From positions 224,001 to 288,000 of the forward strand of contig CAWDOY010000003.1 in NCBI GenBank assembly GCA_963803975.1: a stretch of 64,000 nucleotides of DNA, in the 5' to 3' direction. The stretch is from an uncultured delta proteobacterium (GTDB taxonomy: Bacteria; Desulfobacterota; WTBG01; CAIYCZ01). The position numbers and the translations under genes are program-made. Position 1 is the stretch's first letter. Every line of letters starts with the position of its first letter. Shown here piece by piece: positions 40,725-59,427 of the stretch. Below the pieces are notes generated by a model. The model was given only the letters and a program-made list of their open reading frames with translations. It searched no databases and was not told the DNA's origin.

Positions 40725-42656
40725 ATGTATAAAGACTTCTATCACATGAAAATTGAGCCGTTCGGCACCCTGCCCTCTCCTGATATTTATTTTGCATCAG
40801 AAACACATCAGGGAGCATGGGATTACCTTGTCGAAGGGCTGGAATCAGATGAGCCGTCTTTACTGGTGACCGGCGCGCATGGTACCGGTAAATCTTTGCT
40901 GAGCCTGAGACTTGTTAAGGAGCTTACACAACAAAACTCTCTTCCGTTTGTCTATAACCCTGTTCCGAACTGCGATTACCGGCTTATTTTAAAAGATGTG
41001 GCACGCCGTCTTGATATCACCGTACCATCTGATGATGAAGCGCTGATCCAATACGCGATATATAAATATTTCCTTGAATCTGCAAGCAGAACCAGTTGTT
41101 ATTTAATCTTTGATGCTGTTCAGGATTTGGACGCGTCAACGCTGGTAAAAATATTTAATTTTACCAATTTTAATCATAATGCTTTTTTTCCCTTCCGTCT
41201 GGTACTGTTCGGACAACCTGCAGTTCTTGAAATGCTCATGTCGCTGCATCGCGATACTATTAATTACTATCAGTATCGCCACTACTTTTTAACCCCGCTG
41301 GGCAAGAATGAAACAAAAGAATATATCTATTACCGGCTGCTTACAGCGGATGCGCCGGGCATCCCTGTTTTTACTGATGAAGCGGTGCAAAAAATATATT
41401 CCTGCAGCCGCGGCATTCCCCTGCTGGTAAATAGTATCTGCGCCGCATGCCTTAGACTGGGCGCTGCTCAAGAGCTTAAAATAATTGACGGCACCATCGT
41501 TACCAGGGCCAGCGGTCAAGACCGGGAAATAAACCGAACGCCGCAAAAGACTGATTTCACGGAAAAGATGCGCGGTGGCGTATCAACAGCCGCAGAAGAA
41601 CCTGTTGTTCCAGAAACAAAGGTCTCTGCTGAAAAAGATACCACTGCGCATGCCGTGCCAGCATTGAGCAGTACCCGTTTGTCAGCCGCGCTGCTTATCA
41701 TCATCATTGTCGCAGCGCTCTGCGCAAGCCTGCTTATGCGGCGGGATATCGCTACGGTTTTCAAGGGTTCTCAAGAAAAAACAGCGACAAAAGAATTTGG
41801 CGCTTCATCCAAAACGACATCTACCAGCAATCATGCCAGTATACAAAAAGCTGAAAAGAATCCTGTAACCATTCCGGCGCAACAAACACGCGAAGCAGCC
41901 GGAGAAAAAGCTCCGGCTGGCAGCGCGCCAGCGGAACTCAAACCCGCTGCTTCAGACAAGCCCGCCATGTCCACGGTGCCAATGAAGGCCGCTGTTACTG
42001 CCAGCTTTAATACCAGCTCGATCAAGACGGTAACCAGCACTGCAGCAGCCGGAGAAAAAGCTCCGGCTGGCAGCGCGCCAGCGGAACTCAAACCCGCTGC
42101 TTCAGACAAGCCCGCCATGTCCACGGTGCCAATGAAGGCCGCTGTTACTGCCAGCTTTAATACCAGTTCGCTCAAGACAATAACCGTCACCGCAGTTGAG
42201 ACCAGGACTGCGAAATATCCCTATGCGCTTCAATTGGCTTGTTACAACTCTGAGGAGGTAGCGAGGGAGGAAACGCTGCCTTTTAAGCGGTTAGGTCTGG
42301 TGCCTTTCATAGTAAAGAGTTTTTCGCAAAGAACTGGCGAGACCCTGTGGGTTATATACACCGGTTACTATGAGACCGCAGAAAAAGCTGAACGCGATAA
42401 ACAAAAATACCAACTGCGTGATGCAATTGCAGCACGGACGCCCTACGCGGTTTTGATTGGCACGTTCGCAGCAGCGGAAGAAATGTCAGCAACGGTGAGG
42501 TATCTTGAACAGCTTGGATATTATCCGTACGCAATACCTGACGGACTCAACACGCTGAGCCTTTTTGCCGGTGCATTTTCAACCAGGTCGGGTGCTGAGA
42601 AGTTGCAACTCCAGCTTCAGGCAGACGGCATTAAAAGCCAGGTAGTGCTGCGGTAA
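40725..42656 (+). CDS. ExeA-like AAA domain, TM, low-complexity linker and two SPOR-like domains
   Basis: MYKDFYHMKIEPF, GAHGTGKS, LFGQP, SRGIPLLVNSIC; central TM; YALQLACY...WVIYTGYY and FAGAFSTR SPOR-like repeats. Confidence 0.8.
   Translation: MYKDFYHMKIEPFGTLPSPDIYFASETHQGAWDYLVEGLESDEPSLLVTGAHGTGKSLLSLRLVKELTQQNSLPFVYNPVPNCDYRLILKDVARRLDITVPSDDEALIQYAIYKYFLESASRTSCYLIFDAVQDLDASTLVKIFNFTNFNHNAFFPFRLVLFGQPAVLEMLMSLHRDTINYYQYRHYFLTPLGKNETKEYIYYRLLTADAPGIPVFTDEAVQKIYSCSRGIPLLVNSICAACLRLGAAQELKIIDGTIVTRASGQDREINRTPQKTDFTEKMRGGVSTAAEEPVVPETKVSAEKDTTAHAVPALSSTRLSAALLIIIIVAALCASLLMRRDIATVFKGSQEKTATKEFGASSKTTSTSNHASIQKAEKNPVTIPAQQTREAAGEKAPAGSAPAELKPAASDKPAMSTVPMKAAVTASFNTSSIKTVTSTAAAGEKAPAGSAPAELKPAASDKPAMSTVPMKAAVTASFNTSSLKTITVTAVETRTAKYPYALQLACYNSEEVAREETLPFKRLGLVPFIVKSFSQRTGETLWVIYTGYYETAEKAERDKQKYQLRDAIAARTPYAVLIGTFAAAEEMSATVRYLEQLGYYPYAIPDGLNTLSLFAGAFSTRSGAEKLQLQLQADGIKSQVVLR
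41894..42185 (+). repeat. 150-bp in-frame tandem duplication (50 aa)
   Basis: 41894-42016 identical to 42044-42166, degenerate for ~20 bp beyond. Confidence 0.95.
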
Positions 42657-46986: not shown

Positions 46987-48724
46987 ATGCATGTACGTAA
47001 ACGAGTATTTTCCATACTGATTCTTTTTATGATTTCAGCGGGCGCCTGTACCCTGCCGGCAAAAAAGACCATGCCGGGTCCCGGAATAAAACCGCCGGAG
47101 AAGCTTAAGGAGCTGCAGAAGGTTCCTCCGCCTGACCTTTATTATCACATCATTCTTGGTGAACTGTACCAGGCGGAACGCGACTGGCCCCAGGCTATTG
47201 AGGAATTTAAATCAGCCCTCCTGTACGATGTTGAATCTCCCTATCTTCTGGTTCAGATAGGAAGCCTGTACCTGATACAGAATAATGTGGACGAGGCAAT
47301 CAAATGGTGCGAAAAAGCGATTGCCCGAGATCCCCAGTATCTGGAAGCTCACCTGCTGCTGGCTAATATCTACTCTAGCAAAAACAATACCGCCCAGGCG
47401 ATAAGGGAATATGAGACCATTATCTCTATCGATCCCGACCAGCAGGAAGCCTATCTGTATCTGGGTGCGCTCTATGCAGGGGCCAATGAACATGACAAGG
47501 CGATAGCCACACTGCAGAAGCTGCTTGCAGTCAACCCCGATTCGGTTATGGGCTATTTCTACCTGGGTAATATCTACCTGGACGTGAAGCGCTTCAGGGA
47601 CGCTGAGCAAAGCTATGCGAAGGCACTCCTCCTGCACCCCAATTTTGAATCAGCACTGGTTAATCTGGGCGTTGTGTATGAGGCGGAAAATAATTTTACC
47701 CCGGGCCATCGAGAGCTACCGGAGAATTCTTGAGATGCATCCACAGAACCATCAGGTACGCGGCCGCCTTGCGTATCTGCTGGTCATGGTAAAAGACCTG
47801 CAGGGTGCTTTGCAGCAGTATGAATATTTAAAAAGGGAACTCGGCGACGAGCGCGGAGATATTGCAATCAAAATCGGACTCATCTGCGTTGAGCAGAAAA
47901 AATGGCAAAAAGCAGAAAATGAATTTTTAGAAGTGCTTAAAAAAAACCCTGAGAACTATAGTGCACAGTATTATCTGGGCAGTGTTTACGAGGAGATGGA
48001 TAGACGTGCCGATGCCCAGGCTTTGTTTCGCAAAATTCCATCCGATTCAGAGCTGTTCCCGCAGGCACAGATTCACCTCGGGTATCTCTATGAGAAGGCC
48101 GGAGACAAAGACGCTTCCAAAAAAATAATCCGGGATGCTTTGAAAATAAAAACAACTGAGCTGAGCCTGTACCGGTTTCTTGCCTCCCTGTATGAAAAGG
48201 AAAAAAATTATCAGGAGGCAATTGCGGTACTCAACCAGGCACTGACCATAGATCCCAAAGATGAAGAGATACTGTTTTATCTTGGCGTCCTGTATGACAA
48301 GGCAGCTCTGTTTGAAGAAAGTATTAAAACCATGAAACGCGTTCTTGCGGTAAACCCGCAGAACGCTGACGCGCTCAATTATATCGGCTATACGTACGCG
48401 GATAAGGGAATGGATCTGGATGAGGCGGAAAACCTTATAAAGAAGGCGCTGGCGCTGAAGCCGAATGACGGGTACATAACAGACAGCCTGGGATGGGTTT
48501 ATTTTAAAAAGGGAAAATATGACAAGGCCCTGAAAGAGCTGGAAAAGGCTTTCGCGTTGTCACCGCAGGATCCGGTAATATGCGAACATTTGGGGGATGT
48601 CTATCTGAAAAATAACCAGCCGGGGAAAGCCATGGAACTGTATGAGAAGTCCCTGAAGTTGGACCCGACAAAAGAAGATGTAAAGAAAAAGCTTGAAGAA
48701 ATAAAGAGGAATGCAAAAAAGTAG
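46987..48724 (+). CDS. TPR-repeat lipoprotein (frameshift near 47700)
   Basis: Lipobox-like SAGAC; many TPRs; ALNYIGYTYAD, YITDSLGWVYF, EHLGDVY. Confidence 0.88.
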
Positions 48725-52134: not shown

Positions 52135-53458
52135 TTATTCTTTGCTGACCTTTTCAACTTCGACCATCATATTTTTAACTTTGACAACCCGCACCTCGCT
52201 GCCTTTTTCAATCAAAACTGTGCTGTGCGCGTTCCAGTATTCACCGTGAACAAATATTTTTCCTTCCTGAAATATATCAGTGCAGGCTGTGCCCACCATA
52301 TTTACCAGCCCCTCATAGCCGGTAGCAGGCTGCCTGCGCTGGGCTTTTATCGTCAGCCCGACAATGGTGAGAAAAAAGGCTGAGGTCAGAATAATTGAAG
52401 GCACCATGACATTCCATGATATCCTTAAATACGGCACTGATGACTGAAAGAGCATCAGAGAGCCCAGGGTTAACGCAATGATGCCGCCTATTGAAAGCAC
52501 CCCGTAGCTGGCAATCTTTATCTCCGCAATAAACATGATAACCGCAAGCAGGATTAACAGAATCCCCGCATAATTTGCCGAAAGGGTCTGCATGGAATAG
52601 AAGGAAAGTATCAGAGATATGCCGCCGATAACGCCCGGCAGTATGACGCCCGGGTTTGACAGCTCAAAATAGAGCCCGGCCAGCCCGATGAGAAGCAGTA
52701 TATAGGCAATGTTCGGGTCGCTCACGGTATTGAGGATGAGGTCGCGGATACTCATCTTTTTAAAATGTATTTCCGCGGTTTGCACCTCAAGCTTGCGGTC
52801 TGCCTGCTGCTGTTTCGACCGTCCTGCCGTCAATAGTAGAGATGAGGGTTTTCAGGTCTGGCGCAATCAAGTCTATGACCTTGTTTTTCAAAGCCTCTTG
52901 TTCGCTCAGGGAAACACTCTCCCGGACGGCCTTGATTGCCCATTCCTTATTCCGGTTGCGCTTGATTGCGATGCCCTCAACATAAGCGGCAGCGTCGTTT
53001 ACTACTTTTTCAGCCATATCCTTGCCCATCTCCCCTGCCCCGATGCTCACCGGGTGGGCCGCGCCGATATTGGTGCTGGGCGCCATGGCTGCAATATGTG
53101 CGGCCAGGGTGATGATGGCTCCCGCAGATGCAGCACGGGCTCCGCTGGGGGCAACATAGACAATGACGGGAACCCGGGAGGCGAATATCTTCTTAATAAT
53201 CGAGCGCATTGACAGGTCAAGACCGCCGGGCGTGTCCATCTGCACTATGAGGCACTCAGCAGACCCGCTTTCAGCTTCGTCTATGCTTTTAATAAAATAT
53301 TCGGCAGTAACGGGATTAATCGGGCCGTCTATATCAATGACATCAATCTGTTTGCCGTAGGCGCACGGCAGCAGGAAAACAAGCGTAGCGCATATGCCTG
53401 TGAATGCACAGTGCCATCTGGTATATTTCATAGTTGAATAGCTGCGGTGGGTAATCAT
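52135..53458 (-). CDS. nfeD: NfeD membrane-bound serine protease (frameshift near 52795)
   Basis: [40 protein letters not shown]. Confidence 0.92.
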
Positions 53459-55249: not shown

Positions 55250-55325
<76 letters not shown>

Positions 55326-55335
55326 AATAACAAAG

Positions 55336-55379
55336 AAAAATAGACTATTTAGACGCTAACCTAAATAGTCTATTTTTTT
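55336..55379 (+). terminator. Terminator after tRNA-Lys
   Basis: TAGACTATTTAG-8nt-CTAAATAGTCTA plus T run. Confidence 0.75.
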
Positions 55380-55744
55380 ACTAAATCTCCTGCTACCGCC
55401 CTGCTACCGATTTTTAAAATAAAAAAGCCCTATAGTTTGTTCTATAGAGCTTTGAATTTTATGCTGAGGCTTTCTAAATTGCCCTGTATTGCGCCCTAAT
55501 CTCTACCCCCTACCCTTTTGCCCCTCTGAAAAAAGATATAGGCTAATTTTGTGAGCCCTTCTTGAGTATCCTACGAAGCTGTCTCTTTGTATTTAATATA
55601 CTCTAATTGATATAAATTCTTGCCAAGATTACAATTGTACATATCCAGCTTCAGTGAGAATAATATATACAAAATAATATATGAAGGGGAACCAATGATT
55701 CGAATAACTAAAGGGGTACAACTACATAATAAAGATTAAAACAG

Positions 55745-55781
55745 AACCTCCACCAGCAAGTAATTACTGTGGAGGTTTTTT
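55745..55781 (+). terminator. Terminator-like hairpin just upstream of LRR gene RBS
   Basis: AACCTCCAC...GTGGAGGTTTTTT about 12 nt before GAGGAGG. Confidence 0.55.
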
Positions 55782-55805
55782 AGTCTTTGCAACGAGGAGG
55801 GTAAA

Positions 55806-57080
55806 ATGAAAAGTAAAAAGTTCAAACTATCGGCAATAGTATTTTACTCAGTCATTATAGCGTTAGCCTTGGGTTTACCCAATATGGCTTTTGCCCTGCA
55901 ATCGGGAGATTTTACATATACGGAATCAGGCGGCACTATAACAATCACCGGATATACCGGTACTGGCGGAACTGTTGTAATCCCAGCTGCCATAGACGGC
56001 AAGCCGGTGGTAGGCATTGGGCTATTATGCGTTTTATTATATGCACGCGGTTTGACCAGCGTGACCATCCCCGACAGCGTTACGAGCATTGGGGAATATG
56101 CGTTTGCTGGTTGCACCGGTTTGACCAGCGTGACCATCGGAAACAGCGTTACGAGCATTGGGATTAGTGCGTTTCATGATTGCACCGGTTTGACCAGCGT
56201 GACCATCCCAAACAGCGTTACGAGCATTGGGTATTGTGCGTTTTATGGTTGCAACGGTTTGACCAGCGTGACCATCGGAAACAGCGTTACGAGCATTGGG
56301 ATTGTGCGTTTTATGGTTGCACCGGTTTGACCAGCGTGACCATCCCCGACAGCGTTACGAGCATTGGGATATGCGTTTTGACTGCAGCGGTTTGACCAGC
56401 GTGACCATCCCAAACAGCGTTACGAGCATTGGGGATTAGTGCGTTTGCTAGTTGCACCGGTTTGACCAGCGTGACCATCCCCAACAGCGTTACGAGCATT
56501 GGGGATGAGGCGTTTTATGGTTGCAGCGGTTTGACCAGCGTGACCATCCCCGACAGCGTTACGAGCATTGGGGCTAATGCGTTTTATGGTTGCAGCGGTT
56601 TGACCAGCGTGACCATCGGAAACAGCGTTACGAGCATTGGGTGGTTAGGCGTTTTATAATGCAACAGTTTGACCAGCGTGATCATTCCACAACAGCGTTA
56701 CGAGTATTGGGGATTGGCGTTTTACTGGTTGCACCAGTTTGACCAGCGCATATTTTTATGGAAATGCGCCTTCGATGGGGCGGGATGTTTTTTATGGCTG
56801 CGCAAGTAATTTTACCGTTTGCTATACTGCCGGAAGCACAGGGTTTACAACTCCTACGTGGTGCCAGTAAGCAGTATTTGCTATCCGGCAGCGGTGTGTG
56901 ACGACCAACCGCCATAACTCTTTCAACGTTTACTGCAAAGCCCAGTAATAGTGAAGTTACTCTTGCATGGTCAACAGAGTCTGAACTCGACAACGCTGGT
57001 TTCAACCTCTATCCGCTCAGAATCTGAGAATGGACAATATGACAAAATTAACGCTTCACTGATTACGGCACAAGGCTATT
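55806..57080 (+). CDS. Secreted BspA/LRR_5-type leucine-rich repeat protein; frame broken repeatedly in this sequence
   Basis: GAGGAGG RBS, signal peptide, N-cap [20 protein letters not shown], ~11 repeats CxGLTSVTI(P/G)(D/N)SVTSIGxxAFxx, C-cap AYFYGNAP, then a truncated [15 protein letters not shown] domain. Confidence 0.85.
56016..56748 (+). repeat. Tandem array of ~11 x 69-bp coding repeats
   Basis: Framework GGTTTGACCAGCGTGACCATC-N6-AGCGTTACGAGCATTGGG-N6-GCGTTT-N6-TGC-aNc. Confidence 0.97.
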
Positions 57081-57084
57081 TAAT

Positions 57085-58610
57085 TAATAAAAGACAACTC
57101 AGATGGCAGTGGTGGCGGGATTTACTGCGGGGGTTCCTCAACTCCCACAATCACCAACTGTACCATCTCGGAAAACTACACTAGTCGTTTCGGTGGCGGG
57201 TTTAACGGCTCTTCTTCCTCAACTCAAGTAATAAGAAACAGTATCCTTTGGGGCAATACTGCAGAATTTGGGGGGGCTGAAATTTATCCCGACAACTCTT
57301 CTGCCATTATTGTCACCTACTCTGATATTGAAGGGGAATGGACGGGAATTGGGAATATTAATGCTGACCCGCTATTTGTTGACTCTGCTAATGGTAATTA
57401 TCATTTACAAGCATTATCCCCCTGCATTGATTCGGGAACAAGCAGTGGCGCTCCTTCTACTGATATAGAAGGTGCCTCCAGACCGCGAGGTGCTGGATGT
57501 GATATGGGCGCCTATGAGGTGCAAGCACCATTATTGGTAGGCACCGGTAAGCCGTACAATACAATTCAGTCTGCCATTGATGCTGCGATAGATGGTGACA
57601 CGGTTTTGGTCTACGATGGCATTTATGTTGAGAATATCAATTTCCTCGGCAAAGCAATTACGGTCAAATCAGTAAACGGGGCAGTAAGTACTATAATAGA
57701 CGGTAACCAAAGCGGCAGCGTGGTGACCTTCAATAGTGGCGAGGGTTTAGGGTCGGTTATTGACGGATTTACCATCACCAATGGAAAAGGCTATACGAGT
57801 GGGGGTAATGGTGGCGGGATTTATTGTAACAATAGTTCGCCAACAATAACCAATTGCACCATATCATCGAATAGAGCTGCTGAAGGTGGAGGGATTGGTT
57901 GTCGATCCTCCTCTCCAAGGGTAACTTACTGCACTTTATCAAAAAACCGCAACGATATTACTTGTTGCGCAGGGGGCGCTTTTTACGGGGATGTAAACTC
58001 ATACCCCACCATAACCAACTGCACTTTAGAAGGGAATATGGCAGAATCTTATGGTAATGCGATTTATTCCTACAACCTTGACATGAGTAACTGCATCATA
58101 ATAAATAATGAACCTCTCGATGGTTCGCGTGGTTCAGGAATCTATTGCTTTTCATCACAAATAACAAATTGCCTCATATCTGGGAATTATGGGACTTCTA
58201 TTAGAGCTGTTAACTCGGAAATAAGCAACTGCATTATAACAGGCCCCAGGCAGCAATCTGGTTGGTTTAATATTCCGATATTCGGCGGGATTTCTTCTGC
58301 TAATTCGCATATAACCAACTGCACTATAACAGGCCACAGCGGTCTTGACAATGGCGGGATTTTTTGCAGCGACGAGCCTGACCTTCCTTCAACTACGATA
58401 ATTAATTGCGTCATATCCGGGAATCGGGCTGTGTCGTCAGCCGGATATAGTGGTGGGATTGTTTGCTTAAACTCATCGCCGATTATAATCAATAGCATAA
58501 TCTGGGGTAATACAGCCACCGATTTAAGTACCAAGGAGATTTACCTTTATGGCACTTCTACTGCCAATATCAGCTACTCAGATATTGACCAAGATGGGTT
58601 TGACTTTTAA
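57085..58610 (+). pseudogene. Right-handed parallel beta-helix surface protein, truncated at both ends
   Basis: GGGIYC/ITNCTIS repeats, GNINADPLF...SPCIDSG...DMGAYE module, then YNTIQSAIDAA..GDTVLVYDGIYVENINFLGK; no own start or signal; stop supplied by the att copy. Confidence 0.7.
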
Positions 58611-58649
58611 TCCGTAGGTCGTGGGTTCGACCCCCGCGCGGCTCACCAA
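58602..58649 (+). repeat. att site: exact copy of the tRNA-Lys 3' part
   Basis: GACTTTTAATCCGTAGGTCGTGGGTTCGACCCCCGCGCGGCTCACCAA identical to 55279-55326. Confidence 0.97.
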
Positions 58650-58873: not shown

Positions 58874-59389
58874 TTAATAAAACTCAATGTCCGAACCATC
58901 TTGTTTGGCAAAACCATGCCGTATAAGAATTGGTCCAACGTAACTTGCCAAAGCTGTTTGTGTTACATGCCCTTGCAGCCATGCACCAACACTGTTTTCC
59001 GGGGCCATATCTTTAGCTGTGCCTATGGGAACTCTTTTTCCCCTGAAGTGATTTATTAAATGCCTGTAATGGTCAACGCAGATGTTGTACGTATATTTAC
59101 CATCCTTACCGTAATAAATTTTTGTACCTTCTGTAAGAGGATTTCCCTCATATTTAAATTCGCTTTTGCCTTTCCACGTTCTTAATGTTGGCATTTTATT
59201 TTCCTCCTTATTAAAATCACTCTCGATTCTCGATAATAGTATTTTTGCCGTTTTGCTTGGCCTTCTTTCACCTCTTTCCCATTGCAGTATGGTAATTTTG
59301 GACACCCCTGCCATTTCTCCGAGTGCCTTCTGAATAAGACCATTGCTTATTCTAAAATCTTTTATCTGCTCTGAAGTCCATTCTTTCAT
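58874..59389 (-). CDS. XRE-type HTH domain fused in frame to a 106-aa unknown domain
   Basis: IKDFR...LIQKALGEMAGVSKITILQWERGERRPS HTH; internal AAGGAGG RBS before ATG at 59194. Confidence 0.75.
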   Translation of the reverse strand: MKEWTSEQIKDFRISNGLIQKALGEMAGVSKITILQWERGERRPSKTAKILLSRIESDFNKEENKMPTLRTWKGKSEFKYEGNPLTEGTKIYYGKDGKYTYNICVDHYRHLINHFRGKRVPIGTAKDMAPENSVGAWLQGHVTQTALASYVGPILIRHGFAKQDGSDIEFY

Positions 59390-59398
59390 AGTATTTTT

Positions 59399-59427
59399 AA
59401 AGTATAACATTGTTATATTGTTGTCAA
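59399..59427 (-). promoter_or_regulatory. Sigma70-like promoter with overlapping palindromic operator
   Basis: Minus strand TTGACA...TGT-TATACT; perfect IR TATAACA-T-TGTTATA at 59403-59417. Confidence 0.65.

Follow-up and report, generated by a model that had tools for sequence, protein, structure and literature searches.

The closest known system to the locus described here is the set of LRR loci of Flavobacterium psychrophilum. These loci are reported to encode proteins with a signal peptide, 2-14 LRRs with hypervariable positions, and a conserved C-terminal module; the number and sequence of the repeats vary from strain to strain, fragments of broken genes are fused, and recombination is proposed, with no mobilome gene needed (Altae-Tran et al. 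2020, PMC10392669). A second precedent is from fungi. The WD40 repeats of the HNWD genes (het-d/het-e) are homogenised both inside single genes and from gene to gene, each repeat has four residues under diversifying selection, and recombination reshuffles the repeats (Paoletti et al. 2007, PMC1805685). The VLRs of jawless vertebrates combine an LRR scaffold with constant and variable positions (PMC3900441).

We analyzed a stretch of 64,000 nucleotides of DNA (the window) from the genome of an uncultured delta proteobacterium (G000). It contains a gene with 11 BspA-type LRRs, which have a constant framework and a few narrow variable slots. We consider it probable that the LRRs belong to a predicted secreted surface protein, that ordinary recombination between repeats keeps the framework uniform, that selection acts on four to six loop codons, and that the frameshifts are consensus errors where the reads disagree. 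The array would then be another case of a strategy already known, in which repeats are homogenised and selection acts on a small number of residues.

Like the F. psychrophilum loci, the array has hypervariable positions within conserved repeats. Those loci are described as having up to 19 genes each and a type IX secretion signal, whereas G000 has one LRR gene, on an apparent tRNA island remnant; the C-terminal domain and the lineage are also different. By its evolutionary pattern, the array works like the HNWD repeats, although the latter are parts of intracellular eukaryotic NLR sensors with a WD40 fold and a known role in allorecognition, and here we have a bacterial LRR protein that is predicted to be secreted. 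The 23-residue repeat, the caps, the fold, and the predicted secretion signal are those of the BspA/TpLRR class (PF13306 LRR_5; 6MLX, 4GT6, 4FS7), but the very high DNA identity between units and the C-terminal domain without a Pfam match are not. Our literature searches on such LRR genes did not find this lineage named.

The repeat array

Tandem Repeats Finder places the array at 56014-56748 (period 69, 10.7 copies, score 1006). The LRR_5 score is 95.2 bits, as compared to Pfam's curated cut-off of 27.7, so the protein belongs to the BspA/LRR_5 family. By Pfam profile search, this is the sole LRR_5 locus in G000, and searches of the rest of the 4.25-Mb, 98% complete genome with exact motifs, blastn (word 7), and tblastn found no other copy of the framework. 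The features of the gene and its surroundings are listed in Table 1.

Table 1. Features of the LRR gene and of the block that contains it (window coordinates).
Feature	Position	Strand	Evidence
tRNA-Lys(TTT), likely integration site	55250..55325	+	ARAGORN
attL-like left copy of a 48-bp direct repeat (3' part of the tRNA, from the anticodon loop)	55279..55326	+	100% over 48 bp vs 58602-58649
Two 10-bp direct repeats	55389..55409	+	Sequence
Predicted signal peptide, 30 aa	55806..55895	+	tblastn, 30/30 vs start of non-LRR paralogue on contig C45
LRR domain, N-terminal cap	55896..56015	+	Alignment conservation; model of a relative
11 BspA/LRR_5 units of 69 nt, constant framework, 12 slot indels	56016..56748	+	Repeat finding, Pfam, unit parse
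Slots of the wrong length	56022-28, 56035-41, 56045-48, 56301-05, 56369-72, 56379-82, 56434-40, 56642-48, 56655-59, 56687-93, 56712-16, 56723-29	+	Unit parse
C-terminal cap and linker, frame breaks near 56866 and 56902	56749..56904	+	Frames; alignment to intact homologues
First ~55 aa of the ~107-aa C-terminal domain, no Pfam match, ends abruptly at ~57075	56905..57075	+	Homologue covers query 1-55 of 107
Beta-helix (pectin-lyase-like) frame, 507 aa	57087..58610	+	Pfam Beta_helix, 72 bits
attR-like right copy of the 48-bp repeat	58602..58649	+	100% match to left copy

A first-pass annotation of this DNA had described ~11 near-identical units with variable slots, and our parse into units returned its slot-1 and slot-2 strings exactly. 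The variable codons of each unit are 15-16 and 19-20, and to a lesser extent 7-8, 22, and 23. Across the 11 units, the framework has 6 substitutions and no indels in 509 nt; the slots, which comprise 225 of the array's 734 nt, have 12 indels (7 insertions and 5 deletions). Given this share of the array, the chance that all 12 would fall in slots is ~0.31^12. Eight of the 12 touch a run of 3-4 G or T at the edge of a slot, so their exact placement is ambiguous and it was the parse that put them in the slots. Three of the events, all of them insertions that cancel out, are in the first unit and two are in the last, both of which are anchored by unique flanks; the unit before last has three. The observation of the first-pass annotation is confirmed for the array (12/12, with the eight ambiguous at the edge); the gene has three more breaks in the 325 nt after the array: the two in Table 1 and one near 57011, which also appears as a gap relative to homologues.

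The framework identity of this array (0.972) is the highest of 34 rows, some of which are overlapping loci, and the next is 0.950. Also, many foreign LRR contigs map here. Both would be expected if the uniformity of the framework were itself due in part to consensus polishing with out-of-register or foreign reads. We think this is unlikely: framework identity also reaches 0.93-0.95 in metagenome arrays whose slots vary just as much, so polishing is not needed to explain the pattern, and the last two units retain private framework variants.

Another coding repeat in the window (41894-42185; 150 nt, 1.9 copies, 97% alike) has no indels.

The gene and its island

The LRR gene starts at 55806, and its truncated C-terminal domain abuts the beta-helix frame. 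That frame is 1.5 kb without breaks; it lacks a start of its own past the junction, and its 3' end is truncated at the tRNA repeat. A related contig of run X1 continues with different letters past 58599 (in our reading of its orientation). Together, these gene stumps make up a 3.3-kb block beside the tRNA-Lys (55279-58649). We did not find an integrase among the ORFs and frames of the block. The pair of 10-bp repeats, which we take to be candidate arm sites of an integrase, lies near its left end. The DNA of G001, which is from the same genus, matches at 97% identity as far as the tRNA. There, the whole tRNA leads directly into the sequence found here after the right repeat; the block is missing at this tRNA. 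(Farther downstream, G001 loses synteny with the window.) We infer that the LRR gene arrived on a tRNA-Lys island and that the block is the remnant of this island, which later lost its integrase.

The last gene of the block ends exactly at the anticodon-loop crossover. A cut at this crossover suggests that an integrase acted on a secondary site. Directly after the tRNA repeat, in low-GC DNA, there is a small HTH gene (XRE/MqsA-like; 58874-59410, - strand), which may be part of an older island.

Another gene in G000 (C45:21300-22700) has the same 30-aa signal peptide, a 5' region that is 93% identical over 125 bp, and the same C-terminal domain, with another payload (by eye, it resembles Lcl_C). 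About 35 copies of the ~107-aa C-terminal domain are spread across G000, at the ends of many secreted proteins with unrelated payloads. As judged from these sequences, the signal peptide and the C-terminal domain define a modular family of secreted proteins whose payloads can be exchanged, and we predict that the LRR gene's product is a secreted surface protein. The C-terminal domain could be an anchoring or sorting module. In the Atlas, it resembles unnamed clusters from Chloroflexota and other groups, as well as a domain of proteins that bear a type IX secretion tail.

Among the metagenome loci, L035-L037 comprise a tRNA-Pro, a resolvase, an LRR gene, an integrase, and two further LRR genes within 14 kb, which is a multi-LRR island. 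We considered a link to tRNAs as a rule for the family and rejected it: in the sequence around 60 LRR loci, most of which are short, a tRNA is present at 5.

Indels and the consensus

Frame-breaking indels are common across the assembly. Among 101 orthologues of ORFs from G003 and G001, 31 are frame-broken in G000. At the nucleotide level, comparison to G001 gave 48 frame-breaking indels in 38.3 kb, affecting 20 of 34 genes, or 1.25 per kb (38 insertions and 10 deletions). The reverse test on G003 found no frame-breaking indels in 79 kb. As with many genes in this assembly, two others in the window, which from their sequences we take to be a TPR gene (46987-48724) and an NfeD-like gene (52135-53458), are each spread over two frames.

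The slots exceed even this background. From the genome-wide rate, we expect 0.28 indels in the slots and observed 12 (~40-fold); for the framework, we expect 0.6 and observed none. Because of this excess, the reads probably disagree at the slots, as the first-pass annotation had proposed. It had also named a polishing artefact as an alternative, and given the genome-wide background, this is the likeliest source of the indels.

The arrays of relatives point the same way. Units whose length is not a multiple of three account for 2 of 270 units from metagenome contigs, 0 of 33 from seven other genomes, and 7 of 36 from three genomes with few contigs, so the indels track the type of assembly. Two of these three have frameshifts in the background as well (8 in 24 kb for G013 and 2 in 20 kb for G015); G014 has indels in its array yet no frame changes in 12 kb of background. 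Contigs of relatives show letters that restore the length at 56297, 56439-40, 56715, and 56725 (which indicates the norm for the family only). Overall, the slot indels are likely to be consensus errors of the assembly. This is also a warning: a noisy consensus gathers indels at the variable codons of repeats, and these can be mistaken for a hypermutation system.

Although 8 of the 12 events touch edge runs, we do not accept homopolymer error as the main cause, let alone the sole one, because the background is not of the homopolymer type: only 1 of 23 background indels (in a smaller set) is in a run of 3 or more. Several of the slot indels had also been read as merged alleles. For the genome-wide indels, merged synonymous alleles looked convincing by eye, but the proportions that fit (20/29 and 14/18, p = 0.23 for the latter) did not beat the null of 67%. 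What stands for the background is an error dominated by insertions, and for the slots merged alleles are an interpretation and not an observation.

Several causes of disagreement among reads would fit: alleles from a mixture of strains, differing numbers of units, or foreign LRR reads. As a special case of our preferred explanation, the sampled population may carry many slot alleles, whether standing or still arising, that the consensus garbled. We regard this as quite possible, while leaning somewhat against it. The ~40-fold excess favors it, as do the events in the first and last units, which are tied to unique flanks, and the slot differences between two natural alleles (L055 and L058, discussed below). 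Differences in unit count would give the same result, however, and so could foreign reads: among contigs of relatives from four public runs, the summed depth is 40-1025 on the array versus 0-6 on the beta-helix part. The near-identical locus pairs described below also speak against it. We searched public runs for the reads of the source sample, and none of these runs contain the stretch (the best shares 0.19 of its words).

Alternatively, the gene might be a true pseudogene in a decaying island, with the indels as genuine mutations. This would account for the C-terminal domain that ends at ~57075 and is fused to a gene fragment, for the second gene being truncated at the tRNA repeat, for the block without an integrase, and for the three breaks past the array. 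But decay gives no reason for all 12 indels to spare the framework, or for the framework to have just 6 substitutions; those insertions that fall in the first unit offset one another; no break interrupts the 1.5-kb frame at 57087-58610; and indels occur at 1.25 per kb throughout the assembly. We consider it improbable as an explanation of the array. Because half of the C-terminal domain is lost and the gene lies among gene stumps, some of the frame breaks may nevertheless be real decay.

Variable slots in relatives

Among 41 genomes that we searched, LRR_5 is present in 14, including all 3 others from the family and 10 of 17 from a sister family; none of the 20 beyond these have it. Relatives carry tandem pairs of LRR genes and up to 51 LRR_5 matches. 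We gathered metagenome loci with a 19-nt framework motif, which gave 73 stretches, with many arrays among the matches listed. (Two of the stretches are from viral_contigs. Loci L028-L030, L043, L068, and L069 contain a very long array, with over 40 LRR motifs and its own uniform framework, that is identical or nearly so in three records.)

A constant framework with variable slots is the pattern across the family. Pooling 286 distinct in-frame units of relatives, we found an entropy of 3.2-3.6 bits at codons 15, 16, 19, and 20 and of about 2 bits at codons 8, 22, and 23; the remaining codons have 0.03-1.4 bits. We then compared units within 43 arrays from short-read-style loci (208 units, 547 pairs), leaving out duplicates, genomes with few contigs, and several unrelated or very long arrays. 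pN was 0.59 in the slots and 0.07 in the framework, and framework pS was 0.33. Even in the 45 pairs whose frameworks differ at no more than one site, pN in the slots was still 0.49. Amino-acid change at the slots exceeds the synonymous clock, which is the excess that diversifying selection gives. In each repeat, four to six loop codons are probably changing under diversifying selection.

As a guide to the fold, we modeled an intact relative, L058, rather than the window's own broken protein. The model has pLDDT > 90 over the repeats and is a TpLRR-type solenoid (best match 6MLX, E 2e-12, rmsd 2.4 A). The first-pass annotation had suggested mapping the slots onto a structure; in this model they lie off the main strand, in the loop that follows the short second strand.

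How the units change

That repeats are shuffled through the constant framework was another of the first-pass proposals, and this appears to be so in relatives. The evidence comes from one orthologous pair, L055 and L058, which are from different metagenome records and have 1 difference in 502 C-terminal coding bases. In the array that they share, 4 of 235 bases differ (Fisher p = 0.038), all of them non-synonymous and at codons 15, 19, and 23. The two also differ by one unit: unit 2 of L055 consists of the head of L058's unit 3 and the tail of its unit 4, with the crossover inside the framework. These differences, in one clean pair, are what unequal recombination plus selection predicts. A caveat is that assembly from short reads can lose or invent repeats of this kind (PMC12222747).

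Close strains of F. psychrophilum differ in repeat number and sequence; here, this one pair differs and six do not. Each of those six locus pairs joins different records, and identity along the full length is 99.9-100% (perhaps because they are re-assemblies of one sample). Rapid, programmed change is thus not apparent. Two more pairs were left uncounted because the register is uncertain at contig ends: L033/L090, with 8 differences in 17 nt at the slots of one unit, and L084/L097.

The data give no sign of slot-by-slot conversion: in 21 arrays of 5-12 units each, which give little power, none showed a strict four-gamete pattern between multi-base slot alleles.

We propose that unequal crossing-over or gene conversion within the framework would homogenise the units, by RecA or slippage and with no dedicated enzyme. 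Diversifying selection at the slots could be driven by a changing binding partner, or by a phage that uses the protein as its receptor.

Tests for a dedicated generator

Adenine-directed mutagenesis by a diversity-generating retroelement (DGR), or a similar templated process, had been raised because of the NNT codons. The slot codons do resemble those of DGR targets. In the slots, 94% of Tyr codons are TAT, 93% of Asp codons are GAT, and 94% of Asn codons are AAT, versus 51-59% for the genome's usage, and codon positions 1-2 vary the most. Also, Lcl_C genes adjoin several of the arrays, and Lcl_C is a fold that DGRs target.

The components of a DGR are missing, however. G000, at 98% complete, has no DGR-type RT: its 3 RVT_1 matches are two group II intron RTs (C50:613-1149 and C47:24463-24871, both broken over frames). 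The 3 matches to Avd score 25-28 bits against a cut-off of 80, and the best of these, which is the one that we checked, belongs to the 23S_rRNA_IVP family. Searches of G000 by exact motifs, blastn (word 7), and tblastn identified no template repeat or second copy of a unit. The DNA itself does not fit either. None of 83 framework adenines are changed; slot changes involve bases other than adenine (TGG, GAG, and the CCC/GGA switch); and framework serines are AGY, never TCN. Furthermore, we found no RT in the array-rich genomes G013, G014, and G018 (completeness 79-90%), and the same T bias is seen in the slots of G013 (69/77) and G014 (21/27). Rewriting of the slots by a DGR is therefore very improbable and largely refuted. 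Framework third positions are about as conserved as the T of the slots (Leu TTG 82%, Cys TGC 89%), and the T-ending codons fit a recent common background on which positions 1-2 have changed rapidly.

A programmed generator like that of the VLRs is not supported either. Silent cassettes or LRR paralogues, which the annotation had considered, are absent from G000 in motif, blastn, tblastn, and Pfam searches. Near the arrays of relatives, we examined 144 of the 177 neighboring ORFs listed and found no RT or other dedicated enzyme; three integrase ORFs, one resolvase, and four transposases are present, with no constant position. The six near-identical pairs also argue against such a generator. Unlike VLRs, then, this LRR gene has no cassette library, deaminase, or other dedicated enzyme in our searches. 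And the family's variable codons, as placed by the model, are in loops, while VLR variation sits on the concave sheet. By all indications in the DNA, the window's gene is neither a DGR target nor a VLR-type system.

Framework codons across families

For nine framework codons, all of which lie outside the search anchor, we asked how often the exact codon is shared when the residue is the same, using the window's five in-register units. The loci had been selected for similarity of their DNA, and the pairs are not independent; with these limits, sharing is 0.77-0.79 with units of G003, G013, and G014, as compared to 0.44-0.48 for ordinary orthologues. For G015, the values are 0.53 and 0.43. For the same-genus G001, with two units, they are reversed: 0.56 for the framework and 0.86 for ordinary orthologues. 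Since framework codons match those of other families more than ordinary genes do, this suggests that LRR DNA moves horizontally between families, which fits the island setting.

A broader and more tentative proposal, which we consider rather unlikely, is a community-wide pool of LRR units. One DNA framework, synonymous sites included, would be common to several families; islands would carry units and whole genes from gene to gene, genome to genome, and family to family; and populations would hold mixtures of slot alleles that act as an enzyme-free repertoire of variable receptors, with the garbled slots as its footprint. If so, bacterial families would have a natural library of LRR binders in common, and the diversity of slots seen in single long reads could serve as a direct measure of receptor-like variation in uncultured populations.

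Seven named records have the same framework pattern: four stretches from uncultured deltaproteobacterial/Thermodesulfobacteriota MAGs, two from Oscillospiraceae, and one from Verrucomicrobia.
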